53,524 nucleotides of DNA, taken from a virus. Its lineage: Duplodnaviria > Caudoviricetes. The notes beneath the pieces are model-generated. The model searched no databases, was not told the origin of the DNA, and worked only from the letters and a program-made list of their open reading frames with translations. The translations under genes and the position numbers were made by a program. Shown here piece after piece: positions 3,001-53,134 of the stretch (the stretch's first letter is position 1; every line of letters begins with the position of its first letter). Where the stretch lies: positions 1 to 53,524 of IMG/VR virus record IMGVR_UViG_3300027770_002684; one strand, given 5' to 3'.

Positions 3001-5956
3001 TAGTTGTTTGTAAAATATAACCAAGAGCGGTATTAATATCAGGATTTGGTCCATCTCCACCGGCTAAGTTTACGCTGCCACCACCGATAGCAATCTTGCC
3101 GTCTCTAACTGATAATGATGATCCATTAATCGAAGTACCAAATGTATCAATTACAGCACCTGGCCATACAACGGTGGCTGATGATGTAGATTGATCAGTG
3201 ATCTGTCTCCTTAATCCTCTTTGCCATCTTATAGAACCCGAACTGCTGACGGAAGATACAAAAGTGTTATAGACTATATTAACACCATTAGTATCAACAG
3301 TGGTAGAATTCAAATAAACATTACCATCGGTATCTATATCTAATGCCGCCGTGTATTGGTCAACACATTCAGCACTAAGTGTTAAATTCCAGTCAACAGT
3401 TTCGCCATTGGGTGACATCTTTATCAAGATTGCAGATGCTCCAAAGTCAGAATCTTGACTAAACAACACATATATATTTCCAGACGGATCAACTACAGCA
3501 TCTGCACCGTTAGCATTCCATCCACTCCAGTTACTATCATAGATTTCTTTTTGCCATTGTAATATACCACTTACATCGTATTTGGCAACTAACAATAAGT
3601 TGCTACCGCTGCCTCCATCATGGTTAGTAGTTCCTACAACGATAATTTCATTATCCGGACCAACGGCCATACCCCATGCATCGTCATCATATACTGAATC
3701 ACCAAGTTGATGTTGCCATAGAATTGTACCTGTGCTGGAGAATTTGGCCACAAACATATCGTGATTAGTGTACGAATCTACTCCCACAATTACAGGGCAA
3801 TCATCACTTCCAACATCTACCACATAACCTTCAAATCCATCTAATCCTGTTTGCCATATATTTTCACCTGTGCTACTGTCTAACTTAGACAACCATACAC
3901 CTGATCCGTACACATGACCTGCTACATAAATGTCATCATTACTATCTACAGCCACACCCCATCCGTCAACACTGGTACTGGTAGAGTAGATTCTTTCCCA
4001 TACTGTAGCACCTGCAGAATCGAATTTAACGATTCCTGTATAATTAGGTCCATACGCCTCATGATGAACAGATGCTACGATATTATTTTGACTATCATGC
4101 TGTACCGATGATACGCCAAGAACATAGGAGTATCCCTCTGTATTGGCCTGCATGTAGTCTAACCATCTGTTATTATCAACACCCAAATAGGCTGTGGTCT
4201 GTACACTGCTATCTGGGAATGTCATGCTACCATCTGTGCCAAAACGCCAGTTCTTTGAATTGCCACCATCTCTATCGTGTGCGTTAATCTCTACACCGTA
4301 ATCGTATTGTCCCAATGTACCAGGTAATTTAACATAGTTGTAATCGTCGCCTAGGAACAGGTCACTATCTGGTGGATAAACATTACTTTCGTCAAAGGCA
4401 ATATGGAAGTGTCCTGCCACTCCTGGACCTTCCATATTATTACCAAGAGCAAGAGTTCCTCTATCGGTTTCAATTAGCATTCCCGAAGTAATTGCAATCT
4501 TACCGCCGTCTGGTAGTGTTAATGCTCCATCAGAACCTAATATTACACTGTAACTACCTGTGGTTAATCTATCACCTGCGTTAGCAGCAGCGATGATTGG
4601 CATACCATCAACTAACAATGTACCATTAGCACTAACACTCAATGGTGTTCCACCAATGTAGATAGTACCGGTACTGACATACAAGGACTTCCACTGTCTT
4701 TCAGCAGAGCCAAGATCATACAAGTTATTGTATTCAGGTAGTAGATCGCCGCCCATATACATAGTCGCTGTGGAATCTACGGTGCTGATGGTCGTGCCAT
4801 CTACTATCAATCCATCTAAGTATGTGCTAACAGGTGGAACTAACGGTGGACTTAAATCAACCCAGTTGTTTTCATATTTGATATAAGCACGACCATCTTC
4901 GGCATTGAACCACAATAGTCCATCTACTCTGGTAGGTGCTGTGCTGGTTGTCGCTACAAATATAAGAGAACCATTGGCATCTTGTATATCACCTGGGATA
5001 TTCAAGTTACCATCTGCGCCAAATTCCCAAATGTAGTCTGCTGTAGGCCCAGAGGATAATCCCGTTAATATTTGTACGGTGCCAGTAGTTGATGAGAATG
5101 GACTATTGACAATTACTGCCGCAAGTTGTGTACTTGTTGTTCCTAAATTTTCAAAGTTGTCTACCCATTGTAAAGCACCTGCACCGCCTGCGCCTTGAGT
5201 AACAACACCTAACAAAGTACCGGTACTGCCTATAATAAAATCCTGCATACCTCCGCCACCAATATCTCCAATACGAGTATTGCCGCTAGGTAATGTTAGT
5301 ACACCATCTTTACCAAAACTCCAAAGATTTGTCACATCTGTACCAATCTGTACACCCACGTTGGTCAAAGTTGAATCATAGGGTAACTTGACATAGTTAA
5401 GGTCATCACCAAAGAATAGATCTACAGTGGTAGGGTCATCACGCATTATGTGGAAATGTGATGCGGCGGTAGGAACACATTGTTCAGGAGTATTACCAAA
5501 CAATACTGTGCCACGGTCAGTGGTCAATGCTATACCATTACCACCTGAAGTGTCGCCGGTTATATAAGTCTCGTTAACATAACTACCAATATCCCAAGAT
5601 CCATCATCGTTAAAGAATAAATGATTTCTTGGTACTTGTACATCAAATGTAGTTGTAGTCAATGTAACATCGATTGGACAACCATTACCTTGTGATGTTA
5701 AATTCCAACTCGTTGAGGTACTGGCGGATCCTGTATAACCTATACTACCTGCGGATCCTGTATAACCTATACTACCGGTGTATCCAATACTACCTGTATA
5801 CCCAATATCACCTTGACTACCAGCATATCCAAATCCGGCAATCTCACCAGTGGCAACTGCTCTAAAGTTGTGATTAACCTTATTAAATGCTGATCTTAAA
5901 CTATCACCATCTCCTGAGTTGGCATTTGAACCGGTGTTGATATATAATATTGTCAT
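2..5956 (-). CDS. Giant tail fibre/adhesin, 3'-truncated (>1985 aa)
   Basis: ATG at 5956 gives MTILYINTGSNANSGDGDSLRSAFNKVNHNF (T4 gp9/gp10-like N-terminal motif), then GYTGS repeats and many WxFGxDGxLTxP repeats. The frame still reads sensibly at the left edge. It is absent from the ORF track, consistent with no stop codon in the window. Confidence 0.9.
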   Translation of the reverse strand, partial: MTILYINTGSNANSGDGDSLRSAFNKVNHNFRAVATGEIAGFGYAGSQGDIGYTGSIGYTGSIGYTGSAGSIGYTGSASTSTSWNLTSQGNGCPIDVTLTTTTFDVQVPRNHLFFNDDGSWDIGSYVNETYITGDTSGGNGIALTTDRGTVLFGNTPEQCVPTAASHFHIMRDDPTTVDLFFGDDLNYVKLPYDSTLTNVGVQIGTDVTNLWSFGKDGVLTLPSGNTRIGDIGGGGMQDFIIGSTGTLLGVVTQGAGGAGALQWVDNFENLGTTSTQLAAVIVNSPFSSTTGTVQILTGLSSGPTADYIWEFGADGNLNIPGDIQDANGSLIFVATTSTAPTRVDGLLWFNAEDGRAYIKYENNWVDLSPPLVPPVSTYLDGLIVDGTTISTVDSTATMYMGGDLLPEYNNLYDLGSAERQWKSLYVSTGTIYIGGTPLSVSANGTLLVDGMPIIAAANAGDRLTTGSYSVILGSDGALTLPDGGKIAITSGMLIETDRGTLALGNNMEGPGVAGHFHIAFDESNVYPPDSDLFLGDDYNYVKLPGTLGQYDYGVEINAHDRDGGNSKNWRFGTDGSMTFPDSSVQTTAYLGVDNNRWLDYMQANTEGYSYVLGVSSVQHDSQNNIVASVHHEAYGPNYTGIVKFDSAGATVWERIYSTSTSVDGWGVAVDSNDDIYVAGHVYGSGVWLSKLDSSTGENIWQTGLDGFEGYVVDVGSDDCPVIVGVDSYTNHDMFVAKFSSTGTILWQHQLGDSVYDDDAWGMAVGPDNEIIVVGTTNHDGGSGSNLLLVAKYDVSGILQWQKEIYDSNWSGWNANGADAVVDPSGNIYVLFSQDSDFGASAILIKMSPNGETVDWNLTLSAECVDQYTAALDIDTDGNVYLNSTTVDTNGVNIVYNTFVSSVSSSGSIRWQRGLRRQITDQSTSSATVVWPGAVIDTFGTSINGSSLSVRDGKIAIGGGSVNLAGGDGPNPDINTALGYILQTTTDGDVFARGEWELFNTYFDVGNTTLTVNTGTLATDTRVMNVISIDVPSGPDPDNFLNIQRLREPVERIGVGASFEYSTLQEGLFDGPGAGGVTSITGKHDLNTGVSLTSETYAQLMWVPDTSVVTINDIADGPDVYNWAFVGPNGLQIRNATTGTSHEWVFGSTGTLTLPQGGTISEVTVDDGIRDPTVGILLTPYADPGTNPDMAVKIYPTFNDDDHIHITAGNVATVDLFLGDDEQYVKIQRKDAAYPGDTEIGNIVVGTYSTVSNSTWTFGTDGELTLPTNGRLGAIDPKGGTMLDGGLGSNVSVTSFYSTGNYSSCVTANTGGQLYITAYNDGGPNPSRQWVFDKDGSLTLPEGGVIKNSTGTNILDGLGGGAANIGNYTFDNDNLNMPLESKLNSGGVGVANSAEFGTSVTVSTSTVVNSEIYMESGYGEFRSIYNKVGEIESGLTYAGVEGFNYAQYGDVNFSGMVSQTPHIDSMYTISVSTTTGLISIGFTQDGGTSVSKDWITVLGTLNAYYTVNGIFADTTQTVISGGDGVLSSIVKLTDSVNITTIDSITTGTSTWTFGTDGVLTLSTASTILGSGTDPNVYIETATTATTSTWTFGTDGILTLPAATPIIKGGGTGTDVSIVASTGTNPATWVFGADGTLTFPDTSTQTTAWLGGGSSSLSSNDTASNNFNTGNFTNQYNLDIEYTAFTGDYGVNFDITYQKPLDSTKGVTVGAIETPLIMSTATVILKTDISSSTSTWTFGTDGTLTLPHGGTILDTVPTPGITRTKYTGSAAYDVNWYSTATVIETGIATTMSESYDDTLVGGADYSFQYAGYFKAPATGTYTFTMFADDSGRFWIGPNALTGYTAGNANISIPMYDEGSTTTSLTADEFYPIRLQWNNASGPGSMVFSWSNNQGQSTTTDFTGVIFAELGQTAITSDNDIELKINNGTTSTWTFGTDGGLTFPDTTVQTTAYPGLVPSLPICVINSSDKVSLPNNQVRVNFTVNNP

Positions 5957-8971: not shown

Positions 8972-9000
8972 ATTATACAGTGTTTTACCAATGGTGTCAA
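8972..9000 (-). promoter_or_regulatory. Early-type sigma70 promoter of ligase operon
   Basis: Minus strand GGTTGACA-ccattggtaaaacactg-TATAAT; same TGGTAAAAC spacer family as the 45-53 kb promoters. Confidence 0.85.
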
Positions 9001-36396: not shown

Positions 36397-36425
36397 TTGA
36401 CTTAACAATTAAATACGCTTATAAT
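36397..36425 (+). promoter_or_regulatory. sigma70-like promoter
   Basis: TTGACT-17-TATAAT, 10 nt before ATG 36436. Confidence 0.7.
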
Positions 36426-43981: not shown

Positions 43982-44010
43982 TTGACATTGACGGGTTTTT
44001 CCTGTATAAT
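43982..44010 (+). promoter_or_regulatory. Consensus sigma70 promoter
   Basis: TTGACA-17-TATAAT, followed by ACACAC leader. Confidence 0.88.
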
Positions 44011-44042
44011 TATACTCATACACACACACAGAAAGGTTAGTT

Positions 44043-44465
44043 ATGCCAGGAATAGCACTAGAAGGTAGCATTACCTCTTGGGAAAATCGCCCACAATGCC
44101 AAATAGCAGGATGTTGTAATCCTGCTATGTACAACTATCAATATGCTGATGGAGATTGGAAATGGCGAGTAAGACACGGTAAAATTATTTGTGGGGCCCA
44201 TCAGCGTAAAAGTTGGCATCCTACGCTTAAACATCGTAAAGATTACTGCGAAAATGTTTCTGGTTTTTTAGGGTTTAAATGTACTACTAACTTGGTCTGG
44301 AATGGTATGTTAGATGTAGATCATAAAAACGGCAATCCTGGTGATAATAGACCTGCTAATCTACAAACTCTGTGTAAGTGCTGTCATATGTATAAAACAC
44401 ATAAGAACAAAGACTACCTAACAGATGGGCGTAAGACTTTGGGATTTACTAATAGTTACAAGTAA
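44043..44465 (+). CDS. HNH endonuclease
   Basis: LDVDHKNGN..DN...NLQTLC.CCH..KT. Confidence 0.85.
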   Translation: MPGIALEGSITSWENRPQCQIAGCCNPAMYNYQYADGDWKWRVRHGKIICGAHQRKSWHPTLKHRKDYCENVSGFLGFKCTTNLVWNGMLDVDHKNGNPGDNRPANLQTLCKCCHMYKTHKNKDYLTDGRKTLGFTNSYK

Positions 44466-44550
44466 ATACCCCGCTGTAGCACTATACAGATATAGTCTTA
44501 CAGCGTATATACAAATACCCCGCTATACAGGCCACACCAAATACCCCGCT
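44464..44550. repeat. Three direct repeats AAATACCCCGCT
   Basis: Copies start at 44464, 44513, 44539. Confidence 0.8.
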
Positions 44551-45185
44551 ATAGCACCCTTGCCCAGAACCCATAATACACTACATCGAAGTCGATCCTA
44601 CGTAGTGAAAGGTTGAGACCAAAGAATATCCTGACTACAGTGTGATTTCCTTTGGTCGAATGGTAGACCATTTTACGATAGCCTCTCATCCCCACCGTGC
44701 TCCAATCTAAATCCACTATAGATCTAACAGAAATCTACGGCGAAAAAGGATCAATCTACGGTGGATTCGACGCATTTTGGAGCGTTTTTCCACCGTGAAT
44801 CCCAGATTTCTGACCCAAAACTGCCCCAAAATAGTATCACATTACTCAGTGTAGAGTAACATATTCTACTGTGTAATCACTATGCATGTTGTAGATCTAC
44901 TACAGTGTGAGTTGTCCATAGTTGGGATCTGTGTTATACTATGCGTATATACACCGAGACTTGTCTATGAGTAGTGTATATGTAAACCGTAAGCAGCAGG
45001 ATAGACATACAGATTTGATTAGGGGCCGGAAGCCTGGGCGATCGATTGGGTATGTTGAGTCTGATTGTAGATCTTCGTTACTGTTGCTGAACTCGCGACC
45101 AGCCCTTCCGGTGGTTGAGGACCCTCTTTGTAGATGAACAGGCGAGATGGGCGGCGATACTGGGAAACGCAGAGATCGCTGACTG

Positions 45186-45225
45186 AGATAACCCTATAGT
45201 TGAGTAAGCTATAGGGTTATCTTTT
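45186..45225 (+). terminator. 14-bp hairpin with short T run
   Basis: AGATAACCCTATAG-9 nt-CTATAGGGTTATCT-TTT. Confidence 0.6.
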
Positions 45226-45297
45226 GAGTAGATACAATCTATATTATGTTAACCGGGGTCGGAGTGCCGGCTGTGTGGCGGTTATACAACGGATTCA

Positions 45298-45336
45298 CTT
45301 TACATTGGCTTTACATTGGCTTTACATATCTTTACA
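45298..45336. repeat. Tandem CTTTACA(TTGG) x4
   Basis: Units at 45298, 45309, 45320, 45330. Confidence 0.85.
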
Positions 45337-45346
45337 AAGAAATGAG

Positions 45347-45375
45347 TTGACAAAATGGTAAAACCATTGTATAAT
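45347..45375 (+). promoter_or_regulatory. Repeated early promoter
   Basis: TTGACA-17-TATAAT; spacer AATGGT-AAA-ACCATT. Confidence 0.9.
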
Positions 45376-45402
45376 TGACACTTACACACACTGGAGCACA
45401 CT

Positions 45403-45645
45403 ATGCTGACAAACGAAAGCGAAATTATAAACAATGCTACTATTACACACGACTACGAAGCAGAAGCCATGCAGTCGTTTGAAGCCACGGGCGACGACAT
45501 GATGGACGAACTAACTGAGCGATTTGAGAGTGAGTTTACCAACTTTGATCTTGCAGATGATGTTGGGGGGCTGGTGCTCTACAGACGAGCAGGCGTTTTA
45601 GTAGCGTTCTACGACTACGAGCAGTTCCACGGCGCTGTATTGTAA
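45403..45645 (+). CDS. Acidic early protein
   Basis: GGAG SD; D/E-rich. Confidence 0.8.
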   Translation: MLTNESEIINNATITHDYEAEAMQSFEATGDDMMDELTERFESEFTNFDLADDVGGLVLYRRAGVLVAFYDYEQFHGAVL

Positions 45646-45682
45646 AGTGCCAGAGTGTTGTAGAAATACAGCACTCTTCAGG

Positions 45683-45711
45683 TTGACAAAGTGGTAAAAC
45701 CATTGTATAAT
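45683..45711 (+). promoter_or_regulatory. Repeated early promoter
   Basis: TTGACA-17-TATAAT; upstream hairpin GAGTGTTGTA-GAAA-TACAGCACTC. Confidence 0.9.
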
Positions 45712-45717
45712 ACACAC

Positions 45718-46068
45718 ATGAACAAAGAAACAGTCACCCGCAAGAAACGTGTAGATCGCAATCACATCATCTACGAACTCGTAGTCAATGGGTTGAACTA
45801 CATAGGTGTCACTGCTAAGACTGAGACTACTGTGCAGAAGTCAGTTCGTGTTCGTGCTAACAAGCATTTCTACCGTGCTAAGACTGAGAACAAAGACTGG
45901 GCCCTGTGCGTGGCTCTACGTGAGTTGTCAGACAAGAGCGAGATAGAGATACGCATACACGAGATCATCCGTGGCAAGGCTGCTGCACATCGGCGGGAAG
46001 TTGAGATCCGTCGTGCTATTAACCCTGCGCTGAATACGGACATTCGCGGCGACTTGACAGCGGGCTAA
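45718..46068 (+). CDS. GIY-YIG-like nuclease-domain protein, probably leaderless
   Basis: HIIYEL...NYIGVT...R...H...E...LN; ATG 6 nt after the -10 box with no SD. Confidence 0.65.
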   Translation: MNKETVTRKKRVDRNHIIYELVVNGLNYIGVTAKTETTVQKSVRVRANKHFYRAKTENKDWALCVALRELSDKSEIEIRIHEIIRGKAAAHRREVEIRRAINPALNTDIRGDLTAG

Positions 46069-46082
46069 GAACCTGCTATAAT
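46054..46082 (+). promoter_or_regulatory. Repeated early promoter
   Basis: TTGACA-17-TATAAT plus ACACACTTACACACTAAGGAGC. Confidence 0.9.
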
Positions 46083-46108
46083 ACACACTTACACACTAAG
46101 GAGCTACC

Positions 46109-46336
46109 ATGTTTGATTCGTTTACTCGTATACGCCCGGCCACTTGCCGCCTGATGGACATGATGGATGCAGGTGAGATCGATACCCGTATAGTAGCAGA
46201 GATGGCCCTGATGTGGCTGTCGGAGAGTTCCGTTGCCGAGATGATGCAGGCCAACGACATCTTGCAAGAAGAAGCGGCGGATGACGGCCAGCCCGATGAA
46301 GCACAAGAGTGGGAATCTTTTGATCCTGACTGCTGA
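46109..46336 (+). CDS. Acidic early protein
   Basis: AAGGAG SD; tail DGQPDEAQEWESFDPDC. Confidence 0.8.
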   Translation: MFDSFTRIRPATCRLMDMMDAGEIDTRIVAEMALMWLSESSVAEMMQANDILQEEAADDGQPDEAQEWESFDPDC

Positions 46337-46342
46337 AAACGG

Positions 46343-46371
46343 TTGACACATTGGTAAAACCATTGTATAAT
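46343..46371 (+). promoter_or_regulatory. Repeated early promoter
   Basis: Identical to 51883-51911. Confidence 0.9.
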
Positions 46372-46398
46372 TGACACTTACACACTAAGGAGCACGAC

Positions 46399-46638
46399 AT
46401 GCAAGTATTTCAACTAATCGAGCGTTTGATGGACTTGGACCCTAACGCCGAAGTCCACTTGAGTTATAACTATGGCGACCACTGGAGCACCCAAGTGGCC
46501 CCTACTGTGGACACGGTAGACGAGGGACTGGTGAAGTATAGCGACTATCACCGCATGGACACGTTGATGGATGAGGACGAGATGATCGAAGATGAAGGCG
46601 ACTTCGAAGGTACTCGCCGTGTGGTAGTCTTAGGTTGA
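46399..46638 (+). CDS. Acidic early protein
   Basis: SD; stop TGA lies inside the next TTGACA. Confidence 0.8.
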   Translation: MQVFQLIERLMDLDPNAEVHLSYNYGDHWSTQVAPTVDTVDEGLVKYSDYHRMDTLMDEDEMIEDEGDFEGTRRVVVLG

Positions 46639-46663
46639 CAAGACTGGTAAGACCAGTTATAAT
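46635..46663 (+). promoter_or_regulatory. Repeated early promoter
   Basis: Spacer ACTGGT-AAG-ACCAGT. Confidence 0.9.
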
Positions 46664-46690
46664 ATACACTTACACACAAAGGAGCTAGAG

Positions 46691-46978
46691 ATGCTTTCAA
46701 TCGCAGATATCAACACCGCTATCATCAGCCAAACATGGACCAACGATCAACTGACATCTATGATTGATGCTGTCAAGTTCGCTCGTTCGCGTTTAGCGAA
46801 ACAGACCATGCGTCAACTGCACATCGGTGATCCTGTGGTGTTCAATGCCAAGGACGGACGTGCTGTCAACGGCATGGTGACTAAGATTGCTATCAAGTTC
46901 GTCACAGTGAAGACCAACATTGGCTCTTGGCGAGTGCCTGCTAGCATGTTGCGTATCGTAGAACGCGAACTGGCATAA
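46691..46978 (+). CDS. Early protein, SH3/KOW-like C-terminus
   Basis: IGDPVVF...G.VTKI..K.V.V.....WRVP. Confidence 0.75.
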   Translation: MLSIADINTAIISQTWTNDQLTSMIDAVKFARSRLAKQTMRQLHIGDPVVFNAKDGRAVNGMVTKIAIKFVTVKTNIGSWRVPASMLRIVERELA

Positions 46979-46983
46979 AGAGG

Positions 46984-47012
46984 TTGACACGGGAGCGATC
47001 CCGTGTTATAAT
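46984..47012 (+). promoter_or_regulatory. Repeated early promoter
   Basis: Hairpin ACACGGGA-GCGA-TCCCGTGT. Confidence 0.9.
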
Positions 47013-47038
47013 ACACGCTTACACACACTGGAGCACCT

Positions 47039-47416
47039 ATGCAATATTACGATGAACTTGCGCAGTACGAGCGCGAAGGCTTTTCAATCATTGTGGACAA
47101 GACCTATGAAGACATGCATCCCCGGGACACGTTCGACGACAGCTGCCACAACATTGACGAGATCTGTGAGAAGATTGACAACGGGACCTACGAATGGTTT
47201 ATGTTGCGAGTACGTGTACTCGTCGAAGGGCTCGAACTATCACGCGAGCATGTGGGCGGATGCCTATACTATGACGTCCGCGAAGTCCTTACTGACGGGA
47301 CTGCCGAAGACCTCATTGACAGTGCGATGACTGATGCCAAGAAGCAGGTCTATCGACTAAGCCGGGTGTTCGCTGGCCTAAGCGAGCAGGTGGATCGGGA
47401 GGGTGCCTGTGCTTGA
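47039..47416 (+). CDS. Hypothetical early protein
   Basis: GGAG SD; acidic. Confidence 0.8.
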   Translation: MQYYDELAQYEREGFSIIVDKTYEDMHPRDTFDDSCHNIDEICEKIDNGTYEWFMLRVRVLVEGLELSREHVGGCLYYDVREVLTDGTAEDLIDSAMTDAKKQVYRLSRVFAGLSEQVDREGACA

Positions 47417-47633
47417 TAACGTTTTAAAATGGAGTGGCATGGCATTGGTCATCGCCGGTGCCCTATGCACTAGTTTGCGCATTGACCCTTTGAACATCTT
47501 GTTGCTCAATGCGGGTGCTCTTGTCTACATGATATGGGCATTGCGAATTCAAGAAATGAACTTGGTGATCGTCAATGCAGTGCTTTTGGCTATCTATGCA
47601 GTAGGATTAATGCAAGTGCCAAAACCGTTGTAG
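47403..47633 (+). CDS. Small membrane protein (about 3 TM)
   Basis: Three hydrophobic stretches; start may be GTG 47409. Confidence 0.7.
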   Translation: MPVLDNVLKWSGMALVIAGALCTSLRIDPLNILLLNAGALVYMIWALRIQEMNLVIVNAVLLAIYAVGLMQVPKPL

Positions 47634-47652
47634 AAATACAACAACAAAGAGG

Positions 47653-47681
47653 TTGACATATTGGTAAAACCGTTGTATAAT
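47653..47681 (+). promoter_or_regulatory. Repeated early promoter
   Basis: TTGACA-17-TATAAT; upstream GTTGTA-GAAA-TACAAC. Confidence 0.9.
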
Positions 47682-47707
47682 TAACGCTTACACACTAAGG
47701 AGCACAG

Positions 47708-47992
47708 ATGTTCACTACAGACAACCAAACCGCACTCAAAGACGAACTGAACCTCATGTTCAAAGAGCAGGGTGCCGCGTTCACCGCAGGCTACTCCAAC
47801 ATGATGGTGCAGGAGATGCTGATGTTCTTGCCCAAACGCAAGCAGAAAGAGTTCATCCAGCAGGTTGCTGCCTTCAACGGTCGCCAACTAGTCACTGTGA
47901 AGAACTGCTTGACTGGTCAGGAAGTTGAGATCCGCCGTGAAGATGTGGGCACCTGCAACGATCCGAGTCGCGAACTGTTCCATACAATGTGA
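47708..47992 (+). CDS. Hypothetical early protein
   Basis: SD; C-terminal VKNCLTG.EVEI.......DPS.E.FH.M. Confidence 0.8.
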   Translation: MFTTDNQTALKDELNLMFKEQGAAFTAGYSNMMVQEMLMFLPKRKQKEFIQQVAAFNGRQLVTVKNCLTGQEVEIRREDVGTCNDPSRELFHTM

Positions 47993-47994
47993 GG

Positions 47995-48023
47995 TTGACA
48001 GAGGAGCAATCCTCTGTTATAAT
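47995..48023 (+). promoter_or_regulatory. Repeated early promoter, no SD/ORF downstream
   Basis: Hairpin ACAGAGGA-GCAA-TCCTCTGT. Confidence 0.9.
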
Positions 48024-48029
48024 ACACGC

Positions 48030-48143
48030 ATAGACAGATTTGTTTAGTAAGTGCCTCTAGACTGAAGTCGGTCGAGATCTATGAATGCTCAGGCAGATGT
48101 ATAGGAGTGAAGGCAAGCAGATAAGAGCACTTACTAAACAAAG
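48030..48143 (+). ncRNA. Candidate small structured RNA
   Basis: Own promoter; perfect 16-bp closing stem 48039-48054/48127-48142; no SD-led ORF. Confidence 0.6.
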
Positions 48144-48146
48144 TGG

Positions 48147-48175
48147 TTGACAAGTTGGTAGAAGAGTGTTATAAT
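48147..48175 (+). promoter_or_regulatory. Repeated early promoter
   Basis: TTGACA-17-TATAAT-ACACGCATAG. Confidence 0.9.
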
Positions 48176-48181
48176 ACACGC

Positions 48182-48322
48182 ATAGGGAAACAAGTTTAGG
48201 GTTACTCCAGAACGCAACGCAGGACGCATTAAATAGACCTTGAAGGTCAGCCCGCAAGGGATGCATGTCAAAACGCTGAGCAGGGAGGATTAAATCAGTC
48301 TGTGACTGAGCCCATCTTTTTT
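48182..48322 (+). ncRNA. Candidate structured RNA or 5' leader
   Basis: Hairpins GACCT-TGA-AGGTC, CCC-GCAA-GGG, TCAGTC-TGT-GACTGA, then T6. Confidence 0.5.
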
Positions 48323-48333
48323 AGGAGCATAGT

Positions 48334-48492
48334 ATGGGACATTGGGAATTTGGAGAGTTCCGCATTGGACGCTTATTCCACTGCAACGGTAACGACTACA
48401 TCAAACAATCAACACGCACTGCACGGTTGCTCAGCAACGGACGCATCTTCTACTTCGGTAAGAACGAAGTCATTCACGCTATCGCATACTAA
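48334..48492 (+). CDS. Small early protein (52 aa), not in ORF track
   Basis: AGGAG SD; MGHWEFGEFRIGRLFHCNGNDYIK. Confidence 0.75.
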   Translation: MGHWEFGEFRIGRLFHCNGNDYIKQSTRTARLLSNGRIFYFGKNEVIHAIAY

Positions 48493-48502
48493 GGAGCACA
48501 CA

Positions 48503-48664
48503 ATGAAAGAGCAACTACTGGCCTTGGCCTACGAGCAGGAAGATGATGTGTTTGGCTCCAGTGAGCGTGATGAGTTCGATTGTTTGATCGCCCTGATCGA
48601 AGATGGCACCATCAACACCTTTGAAGAACTTGCCCGTTACGGAGTTGAACGATCCGGTGAATAA
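48503..48664 (+). CDS. Small acidic protein (53 aa)
   Basis: AAGGAG SD before MKEQLL. Confidence 0.75.
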   Translation: MKEQLLALAYEQEDDVFGSSERDEFDCLIALIEDGTINTFEELARYGVERSGE

Positions 48665-48673
48665 CCCTGCAGG

Positions 48674-48702
48674 TTGACAGGTCATTCAAACGGTGCTATA
48701 AT
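48674..48702 (+). promoter_or_regulatory. Repeated early promoter
   Basis: TTGACA-17-TATAAT plus conserved leader. Confidence 0.9.
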
Positions 48703-48729
48703 ACACACATACACACTAAGGAGCACAAG

Positions 48730-48831
48730 ATGAAGTTCACAGCAGAACAACTGGCCGCATACATGAAGGGCATGACCATTGCACAGGCAGCAGCCATGTG
48801 GCAAGTGTTGGTTGACAAAGGCATTGTTTGA
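48730..48831 (+). CDS. 33-aa peptide, not in ORF track
   Basis: Own promoter and SD; MKFTAEQLAAYMKGMTIAQAAAMWQVLVDKGIV. Confidence 0.7.
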   Translation: MKFTAEQLAAYMKGMTIAQAAAMWQVLVDKGIV

Positions 48832-48840
48832 AGTTATAAT
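48812..48840 (+). promoter_or_regulatory. Repeated early promoter
   Basis: TTGACA-17-TATAAT plus conserved leader. Confidence 0.9.
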
Positions 48841-48866
48841 ACACACATACACACTAAGGAGCACTC

Positions 48867-49109
48867 ATGTTTACACTGGCAAATGTTCAAAAAGTATATA
48901 CCGGCCGTTTGGGATGTATGTGCGGATGCAGGGGACGATACAGTTATGCCCAGGGCTGTGATGAAGGCTACGACGATCAAGTTAATGAGCGGAGTGTCAA
49001 ACTCATCTTCAACAAGGTAATGAACCACCCTGATCGCAAAATGGACGGCAATGATATTGCTTATGTTATGACTGACACACGCAATCTCGTTGTGTATTTT
49101 AAAGATTGA
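48867..49109 (+). CDS. Hypothetical early protein
   Basis: SD; YTGR.GCMCGCRG.Y motif. Confidence 0.8.
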   Translation: MFTLANVQKVYTGRLGCMCGCRGRYSYAQGCDEGYDDQVNERSVKLIFNKVMNHPDRKMDGNDIAYVMTDTRNLVVYFKD

Positions 49110-49111
49110 GG

Positions 49112-49140
49112 TTGACAGGTCTGGTAAAACCTGTTACAAT
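49112..49140 (+). promoter_or_regulatory. Repeated early promoter
   Basis: TTGACA-17-TACAAT; ACAGGT...ACCTGT. Confidence 0.88.
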
Positions 49141-49169
49141 ATACGCTTACACACTAAGGAGCACAGCAA

Positions 49170-49646
49170 ATGGGAACACGCAGTCGAATTGGAGTCATGC
49201 ACGGAGACAAGTGCAAAAGCATCTACTGTCATTGGGATGGCTATCTGTCGCACAATGGCAAGATCCTGCAAGAGCACTACGATAGTGCCAAGGCCAATCA
49301 TCTCGTGGCAATGGGCGACATGAGCAGCCTGGATAACCATATCGGTGAGAAGCATCCCTTCAGCGGCTACTCGGGCGAAGAAGATAAAGCCTTGTATGAA
49401 CAAGCCCGCGAGAAGCATTGGTCTACATTCTACGCTCGCGATCGCGGTGAGACAGGTGTAGAGTTCAAAGTAGCACAAGACTTCGCAGAGTTCCTGGAGC
49501 AATGCGATAGCTGCGGTGCTGAATACTACTACATCATGAAGGACGGTGTTTGGTATTGTGGTACCACATACGAGAACACACACCCCTTGAGCAAGACTTT
49601 AACGGTGTTGACTGAAGCATTGGCAAACGAAAAGGAAACTGTATGA
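49170..49646 (+). CDS. Phage early protein
   Basis: MGTRSRIG...SIYCHWDGY....G..L..HY; EYYY. Confidence 0.85.
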   Translation: MGTRSRIGVMHGDKCKSIYCHWDGYLSHNGKILQEHYDSAKANHLVAMGDMSSLDNHIGEKHPFSGYSGEEDKALYEQAREKHWSTFYARDRGETGVEFKVAQDFAEFLEQCDSCGAEYYYIMKDGVWYCGTTYENTHPLSKTLTVLTEALANEKETV

Positions 49647-49816
49647 GCAAGATGAGTGATATGGCTTACGACATTGAGCAACTCTACATTGAAGGCTATA
49701 GTGCCCGAACGATCGCGATCATGTTGGAGTGCCCGATCGATCTGGTCTACAATTGGATCGATGGCAACGGTGTGGCAGATATCCCACAAGGGGAGGATGA
49801 ACATTCGGCAAATTAA
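49643..49816 (+). CDS. Small HTH-like protein (57 aa), not in ORF track
   Basis: ATGA overlap; LYIEGYSARTIAIMLECPIDLVYNWI. Confidence 0.7.
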   Translation: MSKMSDMAYDIEQLYIEGYSARTIAIMLECPIDLVYNWIDGNGVADIPQGEDEHSAN

Positions 49817-49828
49817 TCCAGAAAACGG

Positions 49829-49857
49829 TTGACAACGAACCTAATCCGTTGTATAAT
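49829..49857 (+). promoter_or_regulatory. Repeated early promoter
   Basis: TTGACA-17-TATAAT; ACAACG...CGTTGT. Confidence 0.88.
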
Positions 49858-49914
49858 TAAGGTATGGAAAGTAATTATGCAATCCATATTTCACACACAC
49901 AGAAGAGGTATTTT

Positions 49915-50331
49915 ATGACTGACAAGACTTTTAAATTCGCAGGTGTTTCTACTCGTAATGGTGTTTGCAAGGCTCGCTTTGCCAATGACCAAATGCGTGT
50001 CAAGGTGCTGGCCAAGACCGGCAGCAAGGACATCGATCTGATTGAACTCAAAGAGCCCATGACCAAAGCGGCTGCTATCGCGTTCCTGATCTTCATCAAC
50101 TTCGACAACGGCAATGCCACTGTGCGGGCTGCTCTTGAGGAAGGCTTGGAGAAGCGTACCGTAGTTGCCCGGGCACCTAAAGCTGTTAAAGCCAAAGCGG
50201 CTCCTAAGGCCAAGGCTGTGAAGTCCAAGCCCACTATGGACGCTATCAAGGCCAAGGTTGCGGCTGCTACCAAGCCTAAGAAGGCAGACATCGTTGCCCA
50301 GATGGCAGACATGGAAGAAGCACCCTACTGA
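49915..50331 (+). CDS. Protein with Lys/Ala/Pro-rich histone-like tail
   Basis: GAGG SD before MTDKTF; APKAVKAKAAPKAKAVKSKP. Confidence 0.8.
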   Translation: MTDKTFKFAGVSTRNGVCKARFANDQMRVKVLAKTGSKDIDLIELKEPMTKAAAIAFLIFINFDNGNATVRAALEEGLEKRTVVARAPKAVKAKAAPKAKAVKSKPTMDAIKAKVAAATKPKKADIVAQMADMEEAPY

Positions 50332-50406
50332 TAGCGGGGTATTGGGGCCCAGTGTGCCCCATTTAGTAAAATACATTGGGTAGTGTGTTTTACCAAAGGA
50401 AACAAT

Positions 50407-50652
50407 ATGAGTAAACTGGCATATCTGGGTAGACCGTGGACTGTGTTCGAAGCAAAGAACAAGCAGCATCGAGCATGGTTCGCAGAGTTCCAACACAAGC
50501 GGACATGGAGCAATTGTCCTGTGAGATTTGTAGTAGCAGATGATCAAGGTGATCTGGTTACTATGATCCAGCAACGCTTGATTGAATACTACACAACACG
50601 AGAATTCGGTAAAGTTGAAGACCAAAAGTACTTGACCTTGGTCAAGCGATAG
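50407..50652 (+). CDS. Hypothetical protein
   Basis: AAGGA SD before MSKLAY; RPW.VF...N..HR...W..CPVRF. Confidence 0.78.
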   Translation: MSKLAYLGRPWTVFEAKNKQHRAWFAEFQHKRTWSNCPVRFVVADDQGDLVTMIQQRLIEYYTTREFGKVEDQKYLTLVKR

Positions 50653-50700
50653 TGTAATATTAGTGTAACTGTGTGAACAGTATAACATTAAGGAAAACAA

Positions 50701-50976
50701 ATGACAACATATAATATCAACCAAGGGACCAAGACCCACAAGCTATTCACCGCATTGAAGTCGGGTGAGGCAGTCAGTGCCAGCCAAGCAGAGAAGCGTT
50801 TCGGTATCAAGAACATCAGTGCCGAAGTTAGCCGTATCCGTGCAGCAGGTTTCGCAGTGTACGGTAACACCCGTGTCGCTGGCAACCATGTTGAAGTGAA
50901 AGAATATGTAATCGGACAGCCATCACGCAAGTTGATCGCAGCCGGTTACAAGGCAATGGCATTGGGCCTTGTCTAA
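50701..50976 (+). CDS. Winged-HTH DNA-binding protein
   Basis: L..ALKSGE.VSA.QA..RFGI.N.SA.VS.IR..GF.VY. Confidence 0.75.
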   Translation: MTTYNINQGTKTHKLFTALKSGEAVSASQAEKRFGIKNISAEVSRIRAAGFAVYGNTRVAGNHVEVKEYVIGQPSRKLIAAGYKAMALGLV

Positions 50977-51118
50977 AGAACGCTCCAAAGTCTGAAGTCG
51001 CGTATCAGACACAAGTCCCAGGGGGTAGTGTCCCTGGGCAAACCCCCGAACCCCGTATGCCGCAAAGTATATGGGGTTCATCTATTGTGGTCAACCTCTC
51101 TCCGAAAGACCCGCCAGG

Positions 51119-51147
51119 TTGACAGGGTATTCAGATCCTGCTATAAT
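51119..51147 (+). promoter_or_regulatory. Repeated early promoter
   Basis: CAGGGT...ATCCTG spacer. Confidence 0.9.
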
Positions 51148-51171
51148 ACACACATAGACAGCAAGGAGCAC

Positions 51172-51372
51172 ATGATGATCAAAGTAGCAAAGATGACAGA
51201 CGGCAAGGTAGTCGAGGTCGTTCGGGTTGCGGACACTGTAGGCTTCAGCACCGAGCGGGGGTGGGTCATGGTCTGCTTCGACTTTGAGAAGATCAGTCGC
51301 AAGCGTGAGCAATTCAAGTGGGTGCCGGCCACTACTCGATTTGAGTGGGTTAGAGAATACACTTTCGGTTGA
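51172..51372 (+). CDS. Hypothetical early protein
   Basis: SD before MMIKVAK; stop inside next TTGACA. Confidence 0.78.
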   Translation: MMIKVAKMTDGKVVEVVRVADTVGFSTERGWVMVCFDFEKISRKREQFKWVPATTRFEWVREYTFG

Positions 51373-51397
51373 CAGGGTCTTAGGATCCTGCTATAAT
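51369..51397 (+). promoter_or_regulatory. Repeated early promoter
   Basis: CAGGGTC-TTAG-GATCCTG. Confidence 0.9.
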
Positions 51398-51424
51398 ACA
51401 CACATGAACACAAAGGAGCACAAA

Positions 51425-51634
51425 ATGACAGCGATTACAGTAGCAGAGATGATAGAGGCATTGAGCCAGTTGCCAGGGGACGCAGAGTTGGTAGTGACCG
51501 AAAGCGGTTATTACTCTTATGGCGAGTTTGCCAACATCATGTTGCCAGAAGCCTACACCGTAGAAGGTGTGGACAATGATGCAGATGTGGGCAAGGTAGT
51601 CTACCGCATTGGTCACTCACACCAATCTTACTAA
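51425..51634 (+). CDS. Hypothetical early protein
   Basis: SD; TVAEMIEALSQLP.DAE resembles the N-terminus of 46399-46638. Confidence 0.78.
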   Translation: MTAITVAEMIEALSQLPGDAELVVTESGYYSYGEFANIMLPEAYTVEGVDNDADVGKVVYRIGHSHQSY

Positions 51635-51641
51635 GGAGCAT

Positions 51642-51875
51642 ATGATGCAAGCAGAAGCAACCCGGTCCGCATATTACGACACACGCCACGGTGGACCATT
51701 CGATCGTGGCAGTGCCGACTTCTACTATGGTCGTTCGTTCAATCCTCACTACTTCGTCGGTGACACCTACTCCACTCCTAAGATCGAGTTGGCCCAGATG
51801 ACTGCGGCAGAGATCGCAGGTTACACCGCAGGCTACCGCTATGGTGAAGAACTGGGCGATCGTAAAGAGTGGTAG
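51642..51875 (+). CDS. Hypothetical early protein
   Basis: SD; RHGGPFDRGSAD.YYGR. Confidence 0.8.
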   Translation: MMQAEATRSAYYDTRHGGPFDRGSADFYYGRSFNPHYFVGDTYSTPKIELAQMTAAEIAGYTAGYRYGEELGDRKEW

Positions 51876-51882
51876 AAAGAGG

Positions 51883-51911
51883 TTGACACATTGGTAAAAC
51901 CATTGTATAAT
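51883..51911 (+). promoter_or_regulatory. Repeated early promoter
   Basis: Identical to 46343-46371. Confidence 0.9.
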
Positions 51912-51938
51912 TAACACTTACACACACTGGAGCACACG

Positions 51939-52205
51939 ATGAAAGCACTACAGACATACATCGACAACAAGAACCGTTGGAACGCTATCTTCAAAGGTGA
52001 GCAGTTCGAAATCCAAAGTGCCAAGGGTCGACAGCGAGTCGCTGACAGCCTGGACGCAGACCTGAGCCCAGAGAACTTGACCTGTGATGGCGAACTGTCG
52101 CGTCAAGAGATACGGATGCGTTACGATTTCCTGCAACAGGCGGCTGTGCAGTTGACAGCATTGGATCCGCAGGTTAAGATGTATGAGTTCTACACTGGAG
52201 AATAA
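51939..52205 (+). CDS. Hypothetical early protein
   Basis: SD; LSPENLTCDGEL motif. Confidence 0.82.
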   Translation: MKALQTYIDNKNRWNAIFKGEQFEIQSAKGRQRVADSLDADLSPENLTCDGELSRQEIRMRYDFLQQAAVQLTALDPQVKMYEFYTGE

Positions 52206-52206
52206 G

Positions 52207-52356
52207 ATGGACAGAGACGAACTGCTGGCAAAGGTCTATGAACAGATGGAACGCGATATCCGCAACGAAGATTTAACAGCCATTGAAGAACTGTTGAGCA
52301 CAGTGTCTGATGCGGCTTTACTTGGTTTTTTACCCGAAGGAGATTTCAATGCCTAA
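52207..52356 (+). CDS. Small acidic protein (49 aa), not in ORF track
   Basis: GGAG SD; MDRDELLAKVYEQMERD. Confidence 0.72.
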   Translation: MDRDELLAKVYEQMERDIRNEDLTAIEELLSTVSDAALLGFLPEGDFNA

Positions 52357-52870
52357 TTGGTGCAATAACACGCTGAACATCCGCCACGAAGATCCTGCTA
52401 TGATTGAGCGGGCCCGTAAGGCTTTTACCGACGGCAGGTTCCTGGAGGAGTTCATTCCGTTCCCTAATGGTGAGTGGGATTGGAACTTCTGTGTAGCCAA
52501 CTGGGGTACCAAGTGGGATATCGGTGGTGGGGATGGTCACACCGTAGAGCAAGATGCCAATGGTGTCGTGTTCAACTTCGACAGTGCCTGGGCACCACCC
52601 CTTGCTGCCTATGAGCGGTTGATGGGCATGGGCTTTGAGATCCTGGCCTACTACTTTGAACCCGGCATGGCGTTCGCAGGCAAGTGGGAAGATGGTTGCG
52701 ATGACTACTACGAATATGGTGGCATGACCAGTGAGCAGATCGCTGATGAGTTGCCCGATGACCTGGATGAGACCTTTGACATCAGCGGCCAGGTTGCTGA
52801 GTGGGAAGCCGAGGACGAGGAGAACATTGAGATCGACCTTGATGGAGGTGCGAGTTCCACTAACGAATAA
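52349..52870 (+). CDS. DUF1281/YubB-like protein
   Basis: MPNWC.N, NWGTKWD, FDSAWAPP, Y.EPGM.FAG. Confidence 0.8.
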   Translation: MPNWCNNTLNIRHEDPAMIERARKAFTDGRFLEEFIPFPNGEWDWNFCVANWGTKWDIGGGDGHTVEQDANGVVFNFDSAWAPPLAAYERLMGMGFEILAYYFEPGMAFAGKWEDGCDDYYEYGGMTSEQIADELPDDLDETFDISGQVAEWEAEDEENIEIDLDGGASSTNE

Positions 52871-52901
52871 CCCTACACACTGTAGGGTCTTTACAGCACA
52901 C

Positions 52902-52930
52902 TTGACAGGTGTGCTGTTCTGCGTTATAAT
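52902..52930 (+). promoter_or_regulatory. Repeated early promoter with -35 box at hairpin tip
   Basis: ACAGCACACTT-GAC-AGGTGTGCTGT; TATAAT at 17-nt spacing. Confidence 0.88.
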
Positions 52931-52955
52931 ACACACATAAACACTAAGGAACACG

Positions 52956-53123
52956 ATGAAGAAAATATGTGCTAACGGAATGACACGCTGGGCAATGATG
53001 TACCAAATTAAGTTGCAATGCGACACTAACAGTGCTTGCTACAAAATGACAGACGAAGAACTTGTTGCAACTTATAATGCGATTTTTAATATTGCACAAA
53101 AAGACTTGACAACGGCAGACTGA
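52956..53123 (+). CDS. Small early protein (55 aa), not in ORF track
   Basis: AAGGA SD; MKKICANGMTRWAMM. Confidence 0.7.
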   Translation: MKKICANGMTRWAMMYQIKLQCDTNSACYKMTDEELVATYNAIFNIAQKDLTTAD

Positions 53124-53134
53124 ACTGCTATAAT
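53106..53134 (+). promoter_or_regulatory. Repeated early promoter
   Basis: TTGACA-17-TATAAT plus leader. Confidence 0.9.

Follow-up and report, generated by a model that had tools for sequence, protein, structure and literature searches.

The virus record IMGVR_UViG_3300027770_002684 (Duplodnaviria; Caudoviricetes), which was analysed over its entire 53.5 kb (53,524 nt; hereafter the window), contains an array of 19 short gene cassettes whose nearly invariant sigma70-type promoters often have a hairpin within the 17-nt spacer separating the -35 box from the -10 box. Our analysis indicates that such a hairpin most likely forms part of the preceding gene's end. It is probable that the hairpins are RNA stem-loops at the 3' end of this gene, and that each repeated unit is of the promoter-early stem-loop (PeSL) type, a promoter and a terminator in one, in a T4-like phage. 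The spacers contain more stems than their shuffled counterparts, the position of the hairpin is linked to that of the upstream stop codon, the loops are biased towards particular types, orthologous stems are retained through compensated changes, and mosaic joints between related genomes lie at the same units. As judged from these sequence features, the stems would act in RNA, where they may stop or stabilise transcripts.

Stem excess in the promoter spacers

The promoter family was collected with the pattern TTGAC-N18-TANAAT, which gave 21 matches, 20 of which were kept; the remaining one, at 36397, has a TTGACT box, is without the conserved leader and was excluded. The 20 copies have the form TTGACA-N17-TAYAAT followed by a conserved CA-rich leader, 19 of them on the plus strand in an array of 9.2 kb and one on the minus strand (Table 1), and the chance expectation for the strict pattern is 0.01. 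Within the array both hexamers match at 12 of 12 bases in 18 copies and at 11 of 12 in one, and the module runs in the order (G)GTTGACA, 17 nt, TAYAAT, the CA-rich leader ACACNCWTACACAC, AAGGAGCAC and ATG, a leader with AAGGAG and ATG being present after 16 of the 20 copies. The open reading frames (ORFs) between the modules have 33-190 codons, the majority are without a Pfam family, and the region 43982-53134 looks like an early, hyperplastic region.

An initial annotation of the window, made from the sequence alone, had noted that structure in these spacers appears selected and had named shuffled spacers as the null to be exceeded. When ACA, the spacer and TAT were folded as one segment, the mean minimum free energy over the 20 copies was -5.24 kcal/mol, as compared with -1.59 +/- 0.34 kcal/mol for shuffled spacers (2000 rounds, best -2.73), -1.40 +/- 0.39 kcal/mol for random 17-mers from the same region and -1.85 +/- 0.36 kcal/mol (best -3.16) for a null in which the final three bases of the spacer (TGn, extended -10 element) were kept fixed, so that the excess over the proposed null was confirmed. 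Energies at or below -4 kcal/mol were found in 14 of the 20 copies (2.2-2.6 expected) and, with one copy per spacer class, in 8 of the 13 classes (binomial P = 1.5e-5). The inner 14 nt alone gave -1.35 vs -0.35 +/- 0.16, and in a copy-by-copy test with dinucleotide shuffles 9 of the 20 copies were matched by at most 10 of 200 shuffles, while the class with TGGTAAAACCA is individually weak (z about -1). The 13 spacer classes are unrelated in sequence and their stems occupy at least three registers; besides the spacer itself, stems in the window are placed around the -35 box (52893-52917) or upstream of it (45653-45676, 47627-47642).

The individual hairpins reported in the initial annotation could be recovered. 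The two 8-bp hairpins with GCGA and GCAA loops (46987-47006 and 47998-48017) are present and differ at two pairs, both of which are compensated (C-G to G-C and G-C to A-T), and the stems quoted for the promoters at 45347, 46635, 49112, 49829 and 51369 were likewise found, the last with one G.T pair. The copies at 48147, 48674 and 48812, which had been described as lacking a clear stem, indeed lack one, as does the minus-strand copy at 9000.

Relatives were collected by a scan of viral contigs in which both boxes and part of the leader were fixed and the spacer was left free, which yielded at least 119 loci, and a search with the ligase protein added 39 further loci. Redundancy among the copies of the relatives was removed by sequence only, and these copies are not independent of each other. 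Here and below, counts that include relatives refer to the matches listed. Together with the window these loci comprise 594 promoter copies with 475 distinct spacers, 23.4% of which fold at or below -4 kcal/mol and 11.8% at or below -6 kcal/mol, compared with 8.5% and 1.4% of shuffles, respectively. The excess of spacer stems across the relatives is thus real, yet the stem is optional among them, and the view that structure appears selected holds for the window. In addition, a weak consensus, GnTTGGyAAAAyGRTGn, was obtained over 515 copies for spacer positions 3-11 after TTGACA. It is A-rich in the centre and places TG where an extended -10 element would have it, which points to possible spacer contacts or a composition preference independent of the hairpins.

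The capsid gene for Gp23 (PF07068) was found in all five large related records (280-356 kb, CheckV completeness estimate 79-99%), and the lineage of the relatives is therefore T4-like. The window contains no capsid gene; that its phage is T4-like as well is suggested by a ligase identity of 51-66% and the shared promoter module, and its genome probably measures about 350 kb. Nucleotide searches of a phage collection in near and distant modes gave no match to the window, and a protein search with the ligase yielded only relatives of less than 35% identity, with no close cultured phage among them. The public runs that contain the window stretch are labelled freshwater, lake or aquatic metagenomes.

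The hairpin follows the upstream stop codon

The position of the hairpins was analysed in 507 promoter contexts from the window and the IMG/VR loci, 455 of which have an upstream ORF of at least 50 codons. The centres of perfect stems of at least 6 bp peak at -25 to -15 relative to the -35 box and, within the spacer, at +10 to +15, and in a smaller group the -35 box lies in the loop. Where the upstream stop codon is located more than 25 nt before the -35 box, 43-62% of the contexts have an upstream hairpin, 0-4% one enclosing the box and 2-9% one in the spacer. With the stop at -25 to -12 these values are 33%, 24% and 13%, with the stop at -12 to 0 they are 16%, 8% and 25%, and with the stop inside the spacer any hairpin is seen in just 16%. 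Converted to counts, these percentages correspond to spacer stems in about 33 of 167 contexts with a stop no more than 25 nt from the -35 box vs about 5 of 141 with earlier stops. The hairpin hence trails the stop codon of the upstream gene, which is the behaviour expected of a 3'-end element of that gene. Upstream and spacer hairpins did not exclude each other in these contexts (12 with both vs 14.2 expected).

In the window, the upstream stop codon of most copies lies between 12 nt before the -35 box and promoter position +17. It precedes the -35 box by 5-12 nt at the promoters 46343, 46984, 47995, 48674, 49112 and 51883, coincides with the TGA inside the hexamer TTGACA at 46636-46638 (promoter 46635) and 51370-51372 (promoter 51369), and falls into the spacer at promoters 46054, 48812 and 53106, in the first and last of which it is part of the hairpin loop (Table 1).

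The loops of the hairpins differ between the two strands. Among 35 distinct promoter-zone hairpins with a stem of at least 6 bp and a 4-nt loop, 17 have GNRA and 2 UNCG loops and none has a loop of the reverse-complement types; for the spacer hairpins with 4-nt loops the corresponding numbers are 8 GNRA and 1 UNCG of 11. Furthermore, 31 of 133 upstream hairpins, compared with 11 of 507 background 8-mers, are followed by five or more T in the next 8 nt. Strand-specific loops and T-runs both point to the sense strand and hence to RNA, and since the hairpin lies 5' of the start site of its own promoter, it can only be transcribed from an earlier one. The G-T pairs that had been taken in the initial annotation to favour a single-stranded fold lend it weak support: in stems with one mismatch, G.T outnumbers A.C by 8 to 4 in spacers, 19 to 13 upstream and 12 to 5 in overlapping zones, but a looser count gave 9 vs 9 and no bias. 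Of the three readings proposed there, a single-stranded or cruciform DNA signal, an operator and a 3' RNA stem of the upstream transcript, the last is best supported, by the link to the stop codon, the GNRA and UNCG loops on the sense strand and the T-runs of part of the hairpins.

Some hairpins upstream of the -35 box deserve separate mention. Those at 45653-45676, 47627-47642 and 52872-52886 recur upstream in distant relatives (e.g. L005, L016, L055 and L060); they include TGTTGTA-(G/A)AAA-TACAACA and (GA)CCCTA..TAGGG(TC)TTT, and their stems are conserved in sequence and not covarying. A 13-pair hairpin, GAACCCCGTATGC-CGCAAA-GTATATGGGGTTC, is located at 51048-51079 on the plus strand, about 40 nt 5' of promoter 51119 and within or just past an ORF, and is without a T-run.

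Orthologous promoters and mosaic joints

The related genome G003 carries a syntenic array with 70-83% identity to the window. The promoter next after gene 47708-47992, or after its orthologs, has the stem ACAGAGGA-GCAA-TCCTCTGT (core GAGGA/TCCTC) in the window, ACAGGGAG-GCAA-CTCCCTGT (core GGGAG/CTCCC) in G003 and (A)CAGGGGA-GCAA-TCCCCTG(C) (core GGGGA/TCCCC) in the loci L171 and L173, while in L172 an 8-nt loop is flanked by ACAGGG and CCCTGT. Comparison of the window, G003, L171 and L173 shows three pairs changed on both sides, none broken and the GCAA loop kept, only the outermost A-T pair being lost in L171 and L173. Downstream of the -10 box and leader of this same promoter, four different cassettes are found in the five genomes. 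At other orthologous sites a stem of markedly different sequence is retained: the ACTGGT/ACCAGT stem of promoter 46635 is met by GCC/GGC plus wobble pairs, and the ACAGGT/ACCTGT stem of promoter 49112 corresponds to a different one, AGCAC-TTCG-GTGCT, in G003. In the same genome the ortholog of 49829 has a 7-bp stem, that of 51119 no stem, and that of 52902 retains the stem enclosing the -35 box.

The homology between the window and G003 is interrupted at the same units. Blocks end at or just past the -10 box or the leader at 46104, 48036, 51150, 52952 and 53158, and by a hand count 8 of 18 block ends fall into modules, which cover about 14% of the region. The entire module 46979-47038 is absent in L176, L177, L180 and L183, where the same gene pair abuts as TAATG. 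In L174 and L182 a different upstream neighbour comes with the promoter and the spacer is different too, so that it moves together with the upstream gene. In three DNA runs, contigs from related strains also join or diverge at these modules, which is a weak hint because metagenome contigs at 85% likeness can join through repeats.

Proposed role of the stem-loops

The early region thus comprises about 19 one-gene cassettes, in each of which a short ORF is preceded by a sigma70 promoter of consensus sequence, a CA-rich leader and a Shine-Dalgarno site. The stem-loops at gene ends would serve to attenuate or terminate transcripts begun at earlier promoters, or to protect their 3' ends. Since the genes stop no more than about 12 nt from the next -35 box or on its TGA, there is no separate intergenic room, and the stem-loop appears to be written into the 17-nt spacer, where the -35 box would often lend it ACA and the extended -10 element TGT, the -10 box possibly providing a U/A-rich tail. 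The repeated sequence of roughly 60-75 bp may double as a joint for the exchange of cassettes between related phages.

Several results weigh against an RNA element of the upstream gene. Six of the 20 copies in the window and most copies in the relatives are without a spacer stem. A hairpin is present at 37% of the 52 promoters without a nearby ORF, so that part of the association with the stop codon may be due to the availability of non-coding room. A weak stem is present at 43982, the first promoter of the array, though no co-directional gene precedes it. A terminator scan of 43.5-53.5 kb gave 7 sites vs 8.0 expected and none at a spacer, and the spacer hairpins are followed by only 3-4 T in the next 8 nt and, in the window, by no canonical T-run. 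The excess of G.T over A.C that is expected of an RNA stem is weak. In addition, a consensus structure over 69 copies from the window, G003 and G005 was tested in two fixed registers: in the first, 46.9% of the cells were paired compared with 45.5% after shuffling, 101 of 500 shuffles scoring as high, and in the second 48.7% compared with 44.7% (7 of 500), slid registers scoring equally. A single aligned, position-fixed structural element was consequently dropped from consideration, as neither register rose above both the shuffled and the slid controls, and covariation is visible only in free-register tests or at orthologous sites. Finally, the one RNA run with related sequence, a metatranscriptome (0.08 share of words), consists of contigs that reveal no transcript ends, may contain DNA and was not used as evidence of expression.

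Alternative explanations

Among the alternatives, it is conceivable though unlikely that the stems work at the DNA level, where a folded single strand or a cruciform on the cassette border would be a preferred crossover or template-switch point and a mobility signal loosely like attC. In favour of this, the mosaic joints are located at the modules, but the 60-75 bp of module homology can explain the joints by itself, and most block ends lie past the -10 box and not in the loops. Likewise, the solo 60-nt module between genes that abut as TAATG in four relatives agrees with mobility but can also result when two genomes undergo ordinary exchange at modules that they share. Single-stranded DNA, too, forms stable loops of the GNRA type, and the weakness of the G.T bias likewise speaks for DNA. 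The stems, however, comprise just 5-9 bp in about 20 nt and have no conserved core, and the T-runs after part of the upstream hairpins are a feature of the RNA level. For phage RB49 the main text of Arbiol et al. (2010, PMC2839356) places a crossover inside a loop, which is in favour of a DNA signal. A bolder form of this idea, to which we give even less credit, regards the promoter-hairpin-leader module of about 60 nt as a mobile unit whose single-stranded DNA hairpin would mark crossovers or template switches during recombination-dependent replication, amounting to an integrase-free, integron-like exchange in T4-like jumbo phages with 46979-47038 as a fresh insertion.

It is very unlikely that the TGGTAAAACCA-type spacers (8 of the 20 copies with close variants) are operators for a dimeric regulator of the phage or host which would bring about a joint early shut-off. 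This class is conserved in sequence and not in symmetry alone, recurs in G003, G005 and other loci, and its stems are weak as hairpins, and a candidate regulator, a winged helix-turn-helix (HTH) domain (HTH_39, E = 1.2e-6), is encoded nearby at 50701-50976. Over the 515 copies, however, the left half and centre are conserved (TTGG..AAA) while the right half is not ACCA, and the motif therefore looks like a promoter spacer preference and not like a two-fold site. The strongest stems are unrelated to it in sequence, and the match of the 57-aa protein at 49643 is under the Pfam cut-off. The broader suggestion of the initial annotation, an operator for a dimeric phage repressor in these spacers, does not agree with 13 spacer classes, differing stem centres in at least three registers and a fixed register that is not above controls.

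Still less probable is a function of the stems in tuning their own promoter, be it through spacer G+C content or stiffness, through cruciform extrusion on supercoiled, freshly injected DNA or through an N4-like single-strand signal. Spacer sequence modulates promoter strength, the stems sit in the spacer, and the first promoter has a weak stem despite having no upstream gene. On the other hand, stems occur upstream, around the -35 box or in the spacer, with no fixed position relative to the boxes, fixed-register covariation is absent, and a loop bias on the sense strand would be unexpected of a duplex property. Moreover, the boxes match the host sigma70 consensus perfectly and no virion RNA polymerase is encoded in the window. 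Least probable of all is that the stems are functionless, inherited from a few founder modules (several copies are near duplicates, and 46343 equals 51883) or a by-product of ACA and the extended -10 TGT, which give three outer pairs free, because the excess, even though spacer stems are optional in relatives, persists with one copy per class, with TGn fixed and in the inner 14 nt, and orthologs retain stems via compensated changes.

Individual promoters and other features of the window

The promoters and their hairpins are listed in Table 1. At promoter 46635 an alternative stem, AGTCTT..AAGACT, encloses the -35 box. Scans of the array with Rfam and tRNA models gave no matches.

Table 1. Promoter copies, modules and hairpins in the window. 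Energies are given in kcal/mol; shuffles, number of dinucleotide shuffles out of 200 that fold as well as the copy.
Feature	Coordinates	Strand	Stem or hairpin	Energy	Shuffles	Remarks
Array of 19 cassettes (TTGACA-N17-TAYAAT, CA-rich leader, AAGGAG, ATG)	43982..53134	+				drives short ORFs
First array promoter	43982..44010	+	weak 5-pair stem, one G.T, 43991-44005		13/200	no co-directional gene upstream
First array gene	44043..44465	+				HNH endonuclease motif (HNH_3, E = 4e-6)
Promoter	45347..45375	+	weak stem AATGGT-AAA-ACCATT, 45354-45368	-4.3	24/200	TGGTAAAACCA class
Promoter	45683..45711	+	weak spacer stem, one G.T, 45690-45704			upstream 10-bp hairpin, GAAA loop, 45653-45676
Promoter	46054..46082	+	6-pair stem, one G.T, 46059-46077	-7.7	6/200	upstream stop TAA 46066-46068 in loop
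Promoter	46343..46371	+	7-pair stem, one T.T mismatch, 46348-46366			spacer identical to 51883
Promoter	46635..46663	+	ACTGGT-AAG-ACCAGT, 46642-46658	-7.8	1/200	
Promoter-hairpin-leader module, 60 nt	46979..47038	+				fills gap from stop TAA (46976-46978) to ATG (47039); promoter 46984-47012
Hairpin of this module	46987..47006	+	ACACGGGA-GCGA-TCCCGTGT, 8-bp stem	-13.1	0/200	
Promoter	47653..47681	+	marginal spacer stem	-2.5		separate hairpin GTTGTA-GAAA-TACAAC 47627-47642 over upstream stop codon
Promoter	47995..48023	+	ACAGAGGA-GCAA-TCCTCTGT, 8 bp, 47998-48017	-11.8	1/200	2 nt past stop TGA (47990-47992)
Promoter	48147..48175	+	no spacer stem	0		after closing stem of structured non-coding stretch
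Promoter	48674..48702	+	no spacer stem	-0.6		
Promoter	48812..48840	+	no stem	-0.1		coding spacer: upstream 33-codon ORF ends 48829-48831
Promoter (TACAAT)	49112..49140	+	6-bp stem ACAGGT..ACCTGT, 49115-49134	-6.2	10/200	
Promoter	49829..49857	+	6-bp stem ACAACG..CGTTGT, 49832-49852	-5.1	0/200	
Promoter	51119..51147	+	6-pair stem, one G.T, 51123-51140		10/200	
Promoter	51369..51397	+	7-pair stem CAGGGTC..GATCCTG, one G.T, TTAG loop, 51373-51390	-10.4	0/200	
Promoter	51883..51911	+	stem 51888-51906			spacer identical to 46343
Promoter 52902-52930 with shifted stem	52893..52930	+	9-bp stem ACAGCACAC..GTGTGCTGT, 52893-52917			-35 box in loop
Promoter	53106..53134	+	5-pair stem, terminal G.T, 53114-53129		1/200	upstream stop TGA 53121-53123 in loop
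Sole copy outside array	8972..9000	-	no spacer stem			drives ATP-dependent DNA ligase gene (8938-7625)

Promoter 47995 is followed by no gene but by a stretch of 117 nt (48030-48146, plus strand) that extends up to the next promoter as a long irregular hairpin with a 16-bp closing stem. It folds at -36.2 kcal/mol (z = -3.94), which was reached by none of 200 shuffles, and no Rfam or tRNA model matched it. In L173 this promoter stands immediately before the ortholog of the gene at 48334, and 48030-48146 is accordingly regarded as an inserted cassette; it is a candidate phage small RNA. The next promoter, 48147, is followed on the plus strand (48176-48333) by about 155 nt that are free of ORFs before the ATG at 48334 and that contain the small hairpins GACCTTGAAGGTC and CCCGCAAGGG and a T-run at the end; the fold of this non-coding stretch (48182-48325) is no better than that of shuffles (z = -0.06).

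Outside the array, an island of low G+C content (29-36% vs 42-49% elsewhere) spans about 10000-31500 and holds about 25 ORFs on alternating strands. The encoded proteins include four radical-SAM proteins as well as fatty-acid-desaturase-like, Asn-synthase/QueC-like, Asp/Asn beta-hydroxylase-like and aminotransferase-like proteins, and from its content the island looks like an acquired biosynthetic or modification cluster. On the minus strand, an ORF of at least 1985 codons (2-5956) extends past the window edge. Its matches are PA14/GLEYA, collagen-like and NHL-like, with none to a PHROG, and it probably encodes a giant fibre or adhesin.

Comparison with known systems

In common with the early promoters of phage N4, the promoter region contains a short 5-8 bp stem that closes a small loop. 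The N4 hairpins have a fixed place relative to the start site and conserved bases, and are read by a giant virion RNA polymerase. In the window, by contrast, perfect host sigma70 boxes are combined with a stem whose position floats, and no virion RNA polymerase was found within this genome fragment, the only giant ORF (2-5956) encoding the PA14/GLEYA/collagen protein, so that the likeness to N4 hairpin promoters raised in the initial annotation is not supported. Similar to the attC sites of integrons, an imperfect palindrome is located at the 3' border of each small cassette and its symmetry is kept while the sequence varies. However, attC sites are imperfect inverted repeats that measure about 57-141 bp, contain extrahelical bases and conserved core sites and need the integrase IntI, whereas the stems described here span about 20 nt without a common core and each cassette has its own promoter, and on these grounds, no search aimed at an integrase having been made, they were not assigned to the attC class.

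A closer likeness is seen with a rho-independent terminator that overlaps the next promoter, because the stem-loop lies right past the stop codon and part of the upstream hairpins in the relatives consist of a G+C-rich stem and a T-run. In contrast, the spacer hairpins are followed only by T(T)ATAAT, with 3-4 T in their 8-nt tails, and none passes the terminator scan, and they were not classed as intrinsic terminators.

The best match is provided by the PeSLs of T4-type myoviruses, which were described for RB49/phi1 (Arbiol et al. 2010, PMC2839356) and extended to T4/PST and KVP40/nt-1 (Comeau et al. 2014, PMC4122927). According to the main text of the earlier paper, PeSLs are repeated early promoters with sigma70 consensus in hyperplastic regions, their stem-loop is placed between the -35 box and the -10 box, overlapping either box or upstream, one cloned stem-loop cut read-through like a strong terminator, and crossovers within PeSLs exchange ORFan cassettes (PMC2839356). 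In a literature search the PeSL terms were confined to these two papers and works citing them, one jumbo-phage review having them in its reference list only. As far as the main texts describe them, PeSLs have in common with the units of the window the clustering of early promoters with sigma70 consensus in a variable region rich in short ORFs, the variably placed stem-loop, G-T pairs in the stems, the swapping of cassettes at the units and the T4-like lineage. Clustered promoters with sigma70 consensus, a stem-loop of variable position, a span from the stop codon to the Shine-Dalgarno site and start, cassette joints at the units and a putatively T4-like host phage were all found here. The A/T-rich tract that PeSLs have upstream of the -35 box appears weak, only positions -5 to -3 being A/T-biased (0.1-0.4 bits), while the window copies are A-rich (e.g. 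aaagaGG). Compared with the published descriptions, the lineage presented here differs in being an uncultured one from freshwater metagenomes with relatives of 280-356 kb, in having a conserved CA-rich leader, in stems of varied sequence, often with GNRA or UNCG loops, in place of polyG/polyC tracts, and in that the function of its stems is predicted from sequence.

The link between stop codon and stem position and the loop bias were not found in the PeSL descriptions of the 2010 and 2014 main texts, and together with the lineage they are apparently new, although the supplements of these papers may hold statistics on position or loops. Our results extend the range of PeSL cassettes from T4-type phages in culture to uncultured T4-like phages of an abundant freshwater lineage with genomes of about 350 kb, and provide a simple rule for when a hairpin lands in a promoter spacer, namely that the stem-loop is placed according to where the upstream gene has its stop codon. 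For annotation this means that such hairpins should not be taken for operators or exotic promoters. The modules furthermore mark sites of cassette exchange, and can be useful for tracing gene flow in the hyperplastic regions of phage genomes.

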